13,621 nucleotides of DNA from a virus (taxonomy: Duplodnaviria; Heunggongvirae; Uroviricota; Caudoviricetes), in IMG/VR virus record IMGVR_UViG_3300021363_000001, positions 1 through 13,621 of that record, one strand, 5' to 3'. The notes beneath the pieces are model-generated. The model was not told the origin of the DNA. It saw only the letters and a list, made by a program, of their open reading frames with translations, and ran no database searches. This document shows, one piece after another, positions 3,885 to 13,621 of this stretch (position 1 is its first letter; every line of letters begins with the position of its first letter). A program made the position numbers and the translations under genes.

Positions 3885-4540
<656 letters not shown>

Positions 4541-4544
<4 letters not shown>

Positions 4545-5106: not shown

Positions 5107-5270
5107 ATTGGATTTTCAAGTTTATCAATTCGTTTGGCCAGTACAGTATTCAATTCAGCCAGCAGCTTAATTGATCTTGAATTACGAAGGCTGGCAAAGG
5201 CAAGAAATATTACTCCTATGTTAGTTAACACAAGCGGAACGGCCAGATATAGATATGGTATGAGTGTCAT
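5103..5270 (-). CDS. 55-aa single-TM microprotein with amphipathic tail (not in ORF track)
   Basis: MTLIPYLYLAVPLVLTNIGVIFLAFASLRNSRSIKLLAELNTVLAKRIDKLENPI*; ATGA overlaps at both ends. Confidence 0.75.
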   Translation of the reverse strand: MTLIPYLYLAVPLVLTNIGVIFLAFASLRNSRSIKLLAELNTVLAKRIDKLENPI

Positions 5271-5809
5271 TGTAGCGGTGCTAAATATTTTCCTGTTTTC
5301 AAAAAGTTCAGTACTCCAAGTATCACTCCTCCTACTCTGCCGTTGCCATCTTCAAATGGATGGATGGACTGAAATAGCCTATACCATTGGATTAAGTCAT
5401 CGGTAGAACGAACTGGCATGATGCGACTCATTAAGTAAGGAATGAGTAGGTAGTTAGGTGGAGTGTAAACGATTTCACGCTTGGTGAGAATTTCACCAGT
5501 GGCAACATTGACCATTTGTGAGGAGCCAACGATATGCACCTCTTTTGTTCTGTACCGGCCTCTTGATTCCAGTCCAGTCATAATTGTTGAGTGGCATAAA
5601 AATAAAAACCCCTCATCCATTTCATGTTCATCAAACCCGATGATGCTTCGAATGCAAAACTCAGTAGCGTCCACACGTTTTGGATAATCCTCATGCGGCT
5701 TGTTGATCATGTCAGCCAGGGTGCGAACGTCTTCCACATCAACAAATTTCGGTCTCCACTCAGCTGAGCGTTCTTTTACTTCTTCGAATATTGTCTCCAG
5801 GTCACTCAT
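5267..5809 (-). CDS. Fic/Doc (Fido) domain protein, 180 aa
   Basis: HPFEDGNGR signature at 5336-5362, plus GRYRT.EV and a PP motif upstream. Confidence 0.9.
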   Translation of the reverse strand: MSDLETIFEEVKERSAEWRPKFVDVEDVRTLADMINKPHEDYPKRVDATEFCIRSIIGFDEHEMDEGFLFLCHSTIMTGLESRGRYRTKEVHIVGSSQMVNVATGEILTKREIVYTPPNYLLIPYLMSRIMPVRSTDDLIQWYRLFQSIHPFEDGNGRVGGVILGVLNFLKTGKYLAPLQ

Positions 5810-11893: not shown

Positions 11894-12280
11894 ATGAAAA
11901 TATTTCTTGATGACGTGCGGGAGCCAGCTGATTGTATTGGTTATATGTATAGAAGAATTGGTAAAGACAATTTACTTTATATCGAAAAGTGGTGCGTAGT
12001 GAGAAATTATTTTTCATTTATTGGACTGGTTCAGCTCTGTCAAGAAAATAATATTGAGATTACCCACATTTCTTTTGATCATGATCTTGGCTATGTCATG
12101 ACTGAAGACCAGGGCAAAATTATTATTGCCGATGATTACAAAGAAGAAGACAAGACAGGATTGGACTGCGCTAAATTTATAAAGGAATTGTATCAGCGCG
12201 AAGGAAAAAAATTACCAATAATGTTTGTCCACTCAATGAATCCTGTTGGCACCCAACACATCATTGATCTTTTTAAATAG
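11894..12280 (+). CDS. cyclic-phosphate-processing receiver-domain-like protein, 128 aa
   Basis: IFLDDVREP...ISFDHDLG...TGLDCAKFI...VHSMNPVG...I matches the stand-alone receiver-like family linked to RNA repair systems. Confidence 0.8.
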   Translation: MKIFLDDVREPADCIGYMYRRIGKDNLLYIEKWCVVRNYFSFIGLVQLCQENNIEITHISFDHDLGYVMTEDQGKIIIADDYKEEDKTGLDCAKFIKELYQREGKKLPIMFVHSMNPVGTQHIIDLFK

Positions 12281-12351
12281 TGGGATAAGTAAGACTCGAA
12301 CTTACGTGGTTCAGATTTACAGTCTGTCCTTGCTGCCCCGGCATTTATCCC
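12281..12351 (-). tRNA. tRNA-Tyr(GTA), atypical (weak D-arm, no long variable arm)
   Basis: Acceptor GGGATAA/TTATCCC, A73; CAGA-CTGTAAA-TCTG; T-arm GTAAG-TTCGAGT-CTTAC. Confidence 0.65.
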
Positions 12352-12356
12352 AATAG

Positions 12357-12441
12357 CGGAAAGTTGAGCATCGAAGCCCCTACTTGTGAGTAGTCATCCT
12401 TGTTTTCAAGACAAGTTGAATCACCTGATTCGAAACCTTCC
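12357..12441 (-). tRNA. tRNA-Ser(TGA), 8/4 acceptor/T-stem type
   Basis: GGAAGGTT/AACTTTCC, G73; CTTGT-CTTGAAA-ACAAG; long variable arm; T-stem GGGC/GCTC with a 6-nt loop. Confidence 0.75.
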
Positions 12442-12444
12442 AAG

Positions 12445-12515
12445 AGACTACAGCTGGAGTCCAACCAGCTACTCAGGGTTTGCAATCCTGCACCAATGCG
12501 ATTGGTCTTGTAGTC
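12445..12515 (-). tRNA. tRNA-Cys(GCA), atypical D- and T-loops
   Basis: GACTACA/TGTAGTC with U73 (Cys identity); CAGG-A-TTGCAAA-C-CCTG; T-arm GCTGG-TTGGACT-CCAGC. Confidence 0.75.
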
Positions 12516-12523
12516 TATTAAAG

Positions 12524-12608
12524 CGGAAAGCAGAGTAGTCGAAACCCATCCCCTTTCGGGGACGATTTGCTTAGCAAGCAATCTCAGCTCCTCGCTGATT
12601 TACTTTCC
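12524..12608 (-). tRNA. tRNA-Ser(GCT), 8/4 acceptor/T-stem type
   Basis: GGAAAGTA/TGCTTTCC, G73; TTGC-TTGCTAA-GCAA; variable arm TCCCC-GAAA-GGGGA; GGGT-TTCGACT-ACTC. Confidence 0.85.
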
Positions 12609-12609
12609 G

Positions 12610-12681
12610 TGCGAATGTTTGGAATCGAACCAATCCTCACGCTCTTCAGGCGTGCGCTTCTACCAAGTTAGCTTCATCCGC
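12610..12681 (-). tRNA. tRNA-Phe(GAA)
   Basis: GCGGATG/CATTCGC, A73; CACGC-CTGAAGA-GCGTG; TTGG-TTCGATT-CCAA. Confidence 0.9.
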
Positions 12682-12690
12682 AAAATTCAT

Positions 12691-12743
12691 AATGTTTAAT
12701 ATCCTGAACAAAACACCTGCTTTTGTACATTATATTAAACATT
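12691..12743. repeat. AT-rich inverted repeat / long hairpin between tRNA-Leu and tRNA-Phe
   Basis: AATGTTTAATAT (12691-12702) / ATATTAAACATT (12732-12743) with an inner imperfect stem. Confidence 0.8.
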
Positions 12744-12744
12744 G

Positions 12745-12824
12745 TAGGCGTAGTGGGAATCGAACCCACAAGCCGAAGCACAGGTTTTTAAGACCTGCAT
12801 GTTTACCTATTTCATCACACGCCT
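12745..12824 (-). tRNA. tRNA-Leu(TAA)
   Basis: AGGCGTG/TACGCCT, A73; CAGGT-CTTAAAA-ACCTG; short class II arm; GTGGG-TTCGATT-CCCAC. Confidence 0.95.
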
Positions 12825-12825
12825 G

Positions 12826-12906
12826 TCCCGGATGAGGGAGTCGAACCCCCACGCTTTACGCACCAGTTTCTAAAACTGGCGTGGCTACCAATTACACCAA
12901 TCCGGG
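12826..12906 (-). tRNA. tRNA-Leu(TAG)
   Basis: CCCGGAT/ATCCGGG, A73; CCAGT-TTTAGAA-ACTGG; GGGGG-TTCGACT-CCCTC. Confidence 0.95.
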
Positions 12907-12910
12907 AAAT

Positions 12911-12940
12911 AAAAAAAGCCCCCTGTTTCCAGGAGGCTTT
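12911..12940 (-). terminator. attenuator terminator directly upstream of the tRNA array
   Basis: AAAGCCUCCUG-GAAA-CAGGGGGCUUU plus a U7 tract ending 4 nt before tRNA-Leu(TAG). Confidence 0.9.
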
Positions 12941-12967
12941 CATATGCACGTTCTTTTTTTAGACTTT

Positions 12968-13045
12968 CTAATGATCAAGCAATGCATGGCCTCCCGCTGT
13001 TGTGAGCGAATAACTAAAGGAGAGACATAACAAATTTTTGATCAT
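12968..13045 (-). CDS. 25-aa attenuator leader peptide MIKNLLCLSFSYSLTTAGGHALLDH (not in ORF track)
   Basis: Lies between a promoter and the terminator; codons 5-14 are only L/C/S/F/Y; contains the antiterminator strand GGGAGGC. Confidence 0.8.
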   Translation of the reverse strand: MIKNLLCLSFSYSLTTAGGHALLDH

Positions 13046-13049
13046 GGGG

Positions 13050-13080
13050 AAAATGTAATTAATTCATATAACGGTACAAA
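13050..13080 (-). promoter_or_regulatory. promoter for the leader and tRNA array
   Basis: TTTG (13080-13077) - N19 - TACATTTT (13057-13050, one mismatch to TAnnTTTG); ATG 4 nt downstream. Confidence 0.6.
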
Positions 13081-13102
13081 AAAAAATTTGTTACTTTGTG
13101 AT

Positions 13103-13363
13103 ATGGGACAGGTTGAGATGTATGAGACCATCACCGGAGAGATGCTGCCAGTGAAAAAGAAAAAAACAAATCCGCTGCTGAAGGCCTACGGCCCAGGGCC
13201 AGAAGGGAAAAAGTGCGGCCAGTGTGAGCATCACTATTTTAAGAGAATGTCAAAAAGCTATCCCAAGTGCGCGTTGCGAAAAAATACCTGCGGCCCAAAA
13301 ACAGATCACAGCAGCCGCTTTCCAGCTTGTGGAAAATTTATTTTAGAAAATCCTTGCATATAA
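13103..13363 (+). CDS. Cys-rich putative metal-binding protein, 86 aa (start revised to MGQVEM)
   Basis: YGPGPEGKKCGQCEH...KC...TDH...ACGKF pattern; preceded by TTACTTTG-N4. Confidence 0.75.
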   Translation: MGQVEMYETITGEMLPVKKKKTNPLLKAYGPGPEGKKCGQCEHHYFKRMSKSYPKCALRKNTCGPKTDHSSRFPACGKFILENPCI

Positions 13364-13384
13364 AGAAACTTCTTTTTTCATTTG
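13354..13384 (+). promoter_or_regulatory. possible promoter for the second leader
   Basis: TTG (13354-13356) - N20 - TTCATTTG (13377-13384, one mismatch). Confidence 0.35.
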
Positions 13385-13412
13385 CAGTTCAATAAAAGAA
13401 AAAACATCTTCA

Positions 13413-13499
13413 ATGTTCAAAGTAAGAAATACAGAGAAAACGTGGTGCACCGATGGTGGCATGGCGATAGCTGTGATTAATACCGGATCAGGGGGATAA
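13413..13499 (+). CDS. 28-aa putative attenuator leader peptide MFKVRNTEKTWCTDGGMAIAVINTGSGG (not in ORF track)
   Basis: Ends 31 nt before a terminator that precedes tRNA-Trp; its last codons complement the terminator 5' strand. Confidence 0.7.
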   Translation: MFKVRNTEKTWCTDGGMAIAVINTGSGG

Positions 13500-13530
13500 C
13501 GACTTTTGCATATTAACAATTTAGCAAGCG

Positions 13531-13562
13531 CCCCCGATCTTAAAAGTCGGGGGTTTTTGTTT
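13531..13562 (+). terminator. attenuator terminator upstream of tRNA-Trp
   Basis: CCCCCGA-N9-TCGGGGG followed by TTTTTGTTTT. Confidence 0.85.
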
Positions 13563-13565
13563 TCT

Positions 13566-13621
13566 ACAGGTTGTGGGCTAAGGTAGCCGAGCGGATTCCA
13601 AACCCGCAGGAGTGAGTTCGA
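13566..13621 (+). tRNA. tRNA-Trp(CCA), truncated by the window end
   Basis: D-stem GGCT/AGCC; GCGG-A-TTCCAAA-C-CCGC; T-stem GTGAG-TTCGA; the 3' half and exact 5' end cannot be seen. Confidence 0.7.

Follow-up and report, generated by a model that had tools for sequence, protein, structure and literature searches.

We consider it very likely that each tRNA operon of this phage is gated by a multivalent, ribosome-mediated transcription attenuator that would provide feedback on tRNA supply, such that the phage probably makes a tRNA set only when ribosomes are short of that set. The window analysed (13,621 nt; positions 1-13621 of contig C1) is taken from a virus record of 77,621 bp that has direct terminal repeats and is rated 100% complete, and is the left end of a complete 77.5-kb phage genome; coordinates above 13621 continue the window numbering on C1. 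The tRNA region is laid out as three promoter-leader-terminator units (A, B and C), the promoters being candidates, plus one nested attenuator (D) before the Asp and Asn genes.

Leader codons match the tRNA genes behind them

The elements of the three main units are as follows.

12280-12906, minus strand: array A, tRNA-Leu(TAG), Leu(TAA), Phe, Ser(GCT), Cys, Ser(TGA) and Tyr (ARAGORN; Rfam)
12907-12941, minus strand: intrinsic terminator A, hairpin 12917-12938 plus U tract, about -20 kcal/mol
13045-12968, minus strand: leader ORF A, 25 aa; sensor codons 5-14 at 13033-13004; predicted antiterminator strand 12997-12989
13413-13499, plus strand: leader ORF B, 28 aa; sensor codons 3-23; predicted antiterminator strand 13486-13495
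13530-13563, plus strand: intrinsic terminator B, hairpin 13530-13553 plus U-rich tail
13568-13621, plus strand: tRNA-Trp(CCA), with which array B opens; truncated at the window edge (whole gene 13568-13637 on C1)
13568-14579, plus strand: array B, in order Trp, Thr, Met, Ile(GAT), Glu, Gly, Ala, Val, Lys, Arg(TCT); then Asp and Asn at 14822-14974
about 14145-14213 (L001 about 2146-2214), plus strand: degenerate Ile-TAT-like tRNA within array B
15674-15609, minus strand: leader C, GTG-started, containing HQQPRPR, upstream of array C
about 15575-15542, minus strand: terminator C, preceding array C
15541-15238, minus strand: array C, tRNA-Pro, Gln, His and Arg-ACG

Codons 5-14 of leader A (leader 1 of an earlier sequence-only reading) spell LLCLSFSYSL, and 10 of 10 are thus L, C, S, F or Y; among codons 3-25 of leader B (leader 2), C12 is the only such residue, and H, P and Q occur in neither sensor stretch. 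All three observations had been made in that reading, and we recovered each of them. From them it had predicted that tRNA-Trp heads a larger rightward array matching leader 2. With ARAGORN on the whole contig, we found this array on the plus strand from 13568 to 14974: tRNA-Trp does not stand alone, Leu, Tyr, His, Pro and Gln tRNAs are absent from the array, and the amino acids of all 12 isotypes are found within leader B codons 3-23. The same reading had proposed that tRNA supply is controlled in two complementary blocks that split the amino-acid alphabet. Control in blocks by the leaders stood, but the blocks are three units and the nested Asp/Asn attenuator rather than two; H, P and Q belong in a third leader beyond the window. 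The split is not a fixed design, and its partition differs among relatives (see below). Arrays A, B and C jointly serve all 20 amino acids.

Every array is fully covered by its own leader (5/5 amino acids for A, 12/12 for B, 4/4 for C and 2/2 for D), and, as far as the sequences go, the match is codon-level. Arg is split between AGA in leader B, with Arg(TCT) behind it, and CGC in leader C, with Arg(ACG) behind it. Leader B also holds both ATA and ATT, ATA being the codon for the degenerate Ile-TAT-like gene, which has a short D arm and is called by neither ARAGORN nor Rfam; a close relative, L005, has a CAT tRNA in its place. U-ending wobble codons are preferred in sensors A, B and C but not D, a pattern noted post hoc. 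As to the tRNA calls themselves, both Ser tRNAs and the Cys tRNA of array A were called by ARAGORN at a relaxed threshold, as was tRNA-Ala of array B, which is also an Rfam tRNA match; tRNA-Met of array B is initiator-like. A grouping of arrays by position-37 modification was rejected, with tRNA-Trp in array B and a tRNA-Pro with A37 here.

To judge the match against chance, we ended the sensor windows at the switch codon derived from folding, a threshold picked post hoc after the data were seen, with a large margin. Own-array codons made up 38 of 47 (10/13 in A, 20/22 in B, where F2 and C12 are unmatched, and 8/12 in C). None of the proteome windows of equal length (~20,000 per leader) matched as well with full coverage. 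Under coincidence, the pairing that the terminator region requires would by itself yield short ORFs of biased composition; leader A lends itself to this idea in that its pyrimidine-rich codons double as a pairing strand, and the leader B match is modest alone (binomial p 0.007), since the set B amino acids make up 65% of proteome residues. Joint random reassignment of amino acids to arrays, however, reached the observed match in 0 of 10^6 trials, coverage is full in every unit of the genome, and an unseen array was predicted from its leader alone. Coincidence is thereby largely refuted, and we regard it as extremely unlikely.

Predicted switch between antiterminator and terminator

Leader and tRNA genes are separated by terminator hairpins (-18 to -21 kcal/mol, each with a U tract) located 23-34 nt downstream of the stop codon; over 14 of 14 units from 7 genomes, the stop precedes the terminator by 21-38 nt. 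Equilibrium folding of the full leaders gave no switch, the terminator always being favoured; the model therefore requires co-transcriptional kinetics and tight coupling, and because of this result we adopted folding of nascent transcripts that end just past the terminator 5' arm and are blocked wherever the ribosome covers them (cover assumed to extend 10 nt beyond the A-site codon). With the ribosome on the sensor codons, the 5' arm is predicted to be sequestered by a G-rich strand inside the ORF, its pairing with upstream RNA reaching a maximum of 0.74-1.0. The arm is predicted to be freed after codon 14 in A, 23 in B and 13 in C, which are the sensor ends, and the pairing falls to 0.01-0.14 with the ribosome at the stop. 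The antiterminator is thus predicted to be exclusive with the terminator and to be released by a stall on sensor codons. Shuffles of the free RNA reached the observed antiterminator pairing in 1/300 cases for A, 0/300 for B and 23/300 for C, which is not significant alone, and in 5/300, 8/300 and 8/300 for three relatives.

A 1:2 protector (pause) hairpin, which would favour termination when the leader is untranslated, is predicted in unit C, in L005 unit A and in the more distant relatives L044 and L080 (untranslated pairing 0.17-0.32). It is weak or absent for the other units here (untranslated pairing 0.85 for A, 1.0 for B and 0.69 for D), with a weak prediction for A. One may speculate that default read-through of untranslated leader B would suit an array that holds an initiator-like tRNA. 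The Rfam model Phe_leader (RF01859) scored 38.4 bits at terminator A, below its gathering threshold of 55, and this score was mostly terminator-driven.

We picture the attenuators working as follows. Host RNA polymerase would start at a TAnnTTTG-type promoter, producing apparently leaderless transcripts for leaders A and C, and a ribosome would translate an ORF of 21-28 codons that, as read from its sequence, holds at least one codon per downstream tRNA type. A stall on any sensor codon is predicted to leave the G-rich strand free to pair with the terminator 5' arm; a ribosome beyond the sensor would cover that strand, and the terminator would form. If any charged tRNA of the set were scarce, the array would be transcribed and the new tRNAs would relieve the stall, a negative feedback with OR logic in which Asp and Asn would sit behind an additional, nested attenuator. 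Since most amino acids have one sensor codon each, perhaps only a severe shortage stalls the ribosome.

A nested Asp/Asn unit and read-in ORFs before tRNA-Glu and tRNA-Lys

Further ORFs lie within array B.

14582-14764, plus strand: nested unit D, 60-aa ORF ending NNNNDDNP; terminator at about 14787-14821, then tRNA-Asp and tRNA-Asn at 14822-14974
from 13955, plus strand: Glu-codon mini-ORF reading into tRNA-Glu
from 14393, plus strand: Lys/Arg-codon mini-ORF reading into tRNA-Lys

The mini-ORFs begin ~30-40 nt before tRNA-Glu and tRNA-Lys in the present genome, in L005 and in the larger genome L073, and their Glu or Lys/Arg codons adjoin or form a strand pairing with the tRNA 5' end. The Glu hairpin is ~14 bp here and in L005, and outcompetes the cloverleaf in the predicted fold. 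We think it rather probable, from these folds, that tRNA-Glu and tRNA-Lys have a second, maturation-level lock: a ribosome stalled on the mini-ORF would mask the strand that ties up the tRNA 5' end, which would allow folding and processing of the tRNA. The arrangement is not as clean, since the tRNA start would itself be covered by a ribosome halted on the last Glu codons. In the L073 genome, a separate candidate promoter serves tRNA-Glu, together with a Glu-rich read-in ORF that lacks a terminator.

Leader content follows array content in relatives

The closest relative, L005 (capsid 94% identical), keeps all four units. In L044 (capsid 27%) the only tRNAs are Leu, Leu, Ser, Ser and Tyr, and neither C nor F appears in the leader; likewise, L080 has neither tRNA-Cys nor tRNA-Phe, and both residues are missing from its leader. 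L073 is a complete 124-kb genome in which arrays A and C have fused behind a single leader that covers P, Q, H, R, L, S and Y (7/7); the second leader has gained F, tRNA-Phe having moved there, and lacks V and E, whose tRNAs are absent from its array. tRNA-Cys of L073 is weak evidence of co-variation, because it has its own candidate promoter (L100 ~2370-2555, where a short structured spacer also lies upstream of the gene). An unrelated phage (L064 4700-6361, and L070) has a sigma-70-type promoter and a 29-codon leader with a 24/26 match to its array (K, T, G, R, I, V, F, M, A). Thus, across these sequences leader content follows array content and the partition of the alphabet varies; the alphabet appears to be split because each leader mirrors its own array.

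The pattern used in the leader A search included S-Y-S codons, which makes S and Y circular in L073, L080 and the bacterial contig L098, and in these three the evidence consists of the remaining residues and what the arrays contain; L005 and L044, recovered through the capsid, do not carry this bias. Among 38 viral matches to the leader A pattern, only 2 had an array directly behind, and L064/L070 were incidental finds. DNA patterns from leader C gave 9 matches, none with tRNAs, and those from leader B gave none. As single queries against viral contigs, the capsid and the zinc-finger ORF returned no relatives, nor did the capsid against cultured phages; the tRNA region matched cultured phages at single tRNAs only. 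Since capsid relatives L006-L008 (61-70%) carry no tRNAs within the fetched flanks, the tRNA region appears to be an inserted module flanked by structural genes.

These comparisons bear on two other explanations. In the first, the ORFs are translated and coupled to the terminators, and the switch reads general ribosome slowing (antibiotics, starvation, uncoupling) with the codon match secondary. Our folding scans leave room for this, in that a stall at any position before the switch codon is enough to open the antiterminator, and a cyanobacterial tRNA array does answer general translational stress (PMC10272220). General slowing would not, however, explain why leaders track arrays residue by residue in diverged phages, including losses, moves and a fusion, or why matches in A-type leaders fall after the switch codon (2/11, 0/8, 2/9 and 1/9); we consider it quite unlikely.

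In the second, the terminators leak or yield to a phage antitermination factor, and the leader peptides are products, or relics of a captured, non-working host element. Temperate phages often use protein antiterminators, and this phage, with its integrase and adjoining HTH protein, is probably temperate. Moreover, a similar leader-terminator unit lies before Leu, Ile(TAT)-like, Ser, Ser and Tyr tRNAs in a Cytophagaceae MAG (L098 2150-2711), close to the end of a 401-kb contig and in surroundings without obvious phage genes; this unit is imperfect, with coverage of only 3/4 and a W in the leader without a tRNA-Trp in the array. Against this explanation, leader B of L005 encodes an identical peptide with two synonymous changes while the spacers and tRNAs have diverged, the L005 antiterminator and terminator strands are altered in step and yet complementary, and at the site equivalent to unit D an unrelated 144-aa ORF of L005 ends in NNNDDNP, such that two unrelated ORFs converge on the same Asp/Asn tail. 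We judge leaky or factor-driven terminators to be very unlikely, and retain attenuation by the leaders; the L098 unit suggests that the tRNA-attenuator system may exist in bacterial chromosomes too.

Candidate promoters, host and phage

The candidate promoters of leaders A and B are divergent, with an ORF between them.

13050-13057, minus strand: candidate Bacteroidota -7 box TACATTTT, one mismatch to TAnnTTTG, 4 nt before the leader A ATG
13103-13363, plus strand: 86-aa ORF with CxxC motifs, between the divergent candidate promoters
13377-13384, plus strand: candidate -7 box TTCATTTG, one mismatch, 28 nt before leader B

The leader A box is an exact TAnnTTTG in L005, and, here and in L005 alike, 4 nt separate the candidate boxes of A and C from the start codon. 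Since the Bacteroidota -7 box occupies positions -12 to -5 (PMC9723704), transcription would start on the start codon itself, and the leader A and C transcripts appear to be leaderless. The 86-aa CxxC ORF has no family match and, being absent from L005, is dispensable for the system.

TAnnTTTG is the Bacteroidota promoter consensus (PMC7366714), and the boxes of this type that precede the leaders point to a Bacteroidota host; the host is probably not a cyanobacterium. The genome encodes a crAss-type muzzle protein and a tyrosine integrase with an Arm-DNA-bind_5 domain adjoined by an HTH protein, and the phage is therefore probably a temperate crAss-like phage. Its record occurs in soil metagenomes, with no RNA data set listed among them, a blank that has no bearing on expression, and pieces of the tRNA region assembled from another study's sample (run X2) showed 0 letter differences.

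Other features of the region

Between tRNA-Met and tRNA-Ile lies a circularly permuted, anticodon-less tRNA-like RNA (C1 13799-13870, L001 1800-1871, plus strand), ordered as T arm, acceptor stem closed by a loop, D arm and closing stem. It also occurs at L005 14604-14673, where all hand-assigned pairs hold, many changed on both sides. Its topology is that of the YrlA tRNA-like domain (PMC4201824); there was no Rfam YrlA match, and no Ro60/TROVE gene in the genome. It is possibly a decoy for tRNA-binding enzymes. An AT-rich inverted repeat of ~55 nt, possibly a small mobile or processing element, sits between tRNA-Leu and tRNA-Phe here (12685-12742) and between tRNA-Glu and tRNA-Gly in L005 (~14880-14937). 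Directly upstream of leader C is an adenylosuccinate-synthetase-family gene (C1 15692-16852, L001 3693-4853, minus strand), labelled PurZ-like by PHROG, with the PurA-type Asp in its GDEGKG motif, and absent at the L005 site. Elsewhere in the window, the minus-strand ORF 3885-4544 begins with a long Gly-Ser/Gly-Tyr repeat, and the minus-strand ORF 5267-5809 encodes a Fic/DOC-family protein.

Relation to known systems

Leader-peptide attenuators of amino-acid operons include trpL, hisL, leuL and the multivalent thrL and ilvGMEDA. The phage units share with them a short sensor ORF, a 2:3 antiterminator (predicted in the phage) and 3:4 intrinsic terminator, a stop just before the terminator and, we infer, the sensing of charged-tRNA shortage. 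In contrast, the phage output is tRNA genes rather than enzymes, up to 12 amino acids are read, mostly from single codons where trpL and pheL have codon runs, the units are phage-borne, two are apparently leaderless, and one nested sensor ends an ordinary ORF. The E. coli pheM attenuator of pheST also feeds charged-tRNA level back on the charging and decoding machinery, in its case a synthetase and one amino acid rather than tRNA arrays. The T-box riboswitch, likewise a terminator/antiterminator switch responding to tRNA charging, differs in binding tRNA directly without translation; Rfam scans gave no T-box match, with cut-offs of E<=1 for the window and E<=10 for the tRNA region.

The proposed mechanism is the known pheL type (a leader-peptide transcription attenuator; PMC3082878), and a Bacteroidota host has yielded clues to leader-peptide attenuation (PMC9723704); we did not find it described for tRNA genes, or with as many as twelve inputs there. 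Our literature search, mostly of journals outside subscription, found no tRNA genes under leader-peptide attenuation. The Anabaena trn tRNA array, repressed by TrcR (PMC8421152, PMC10272220), resembles the phage arrays in that accessory tRNAs stay silent until translation is impaired, and differs in being governed by general stress and a DNA-binding repressor; neither 'leader' nor 'attenuat' occurs in the text of PMC8421152.

Possible purpose and implications

Why phages carry tRNAs has been an open question for more than 50 years, according to PMC10264068, which presents phage tRNAs as a counter-defence to tRNA-depleting host enzymes; this is a likely selective reason for the array. The abstract of that paper is on anticodon-loop resistance and not on tRNA-gene regulation. 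Replacement of tRNAs destroyed by host defences or toxins is the purpose we lean towards, if only slightly. A general tRNA supply during lytic growth is a lesser possibility, and a benefit to the lysogen under stress is doubtful. Loss of tRNA is a more plausible selected signal than amino-acid starvation, because extra tRNA cannot cure starvation, even though starvation would trip the switch. We give about an even chance to a self-monitoring supply for all 20 amino acids, in which the four attenuators and the Glu and Lys folding locks would sense destroyed host tRNAs (for instance, by anti-phage tRNases) and only the affected block would be made.

The units would extend classical attenuation from enzymes to tRNA genes, and they may offer compact multi-input biosensors of tRNA availability in Bacteroidota. 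Simple codon compensation requires no sensor, and a switch set by stalls on a tRNA's own codons argues that these tRNAs are an on-demand rescue from tRNA depletion. If the self-monitoring reading is true, leader sequences would reveal which tRNAs phages expect to lose.
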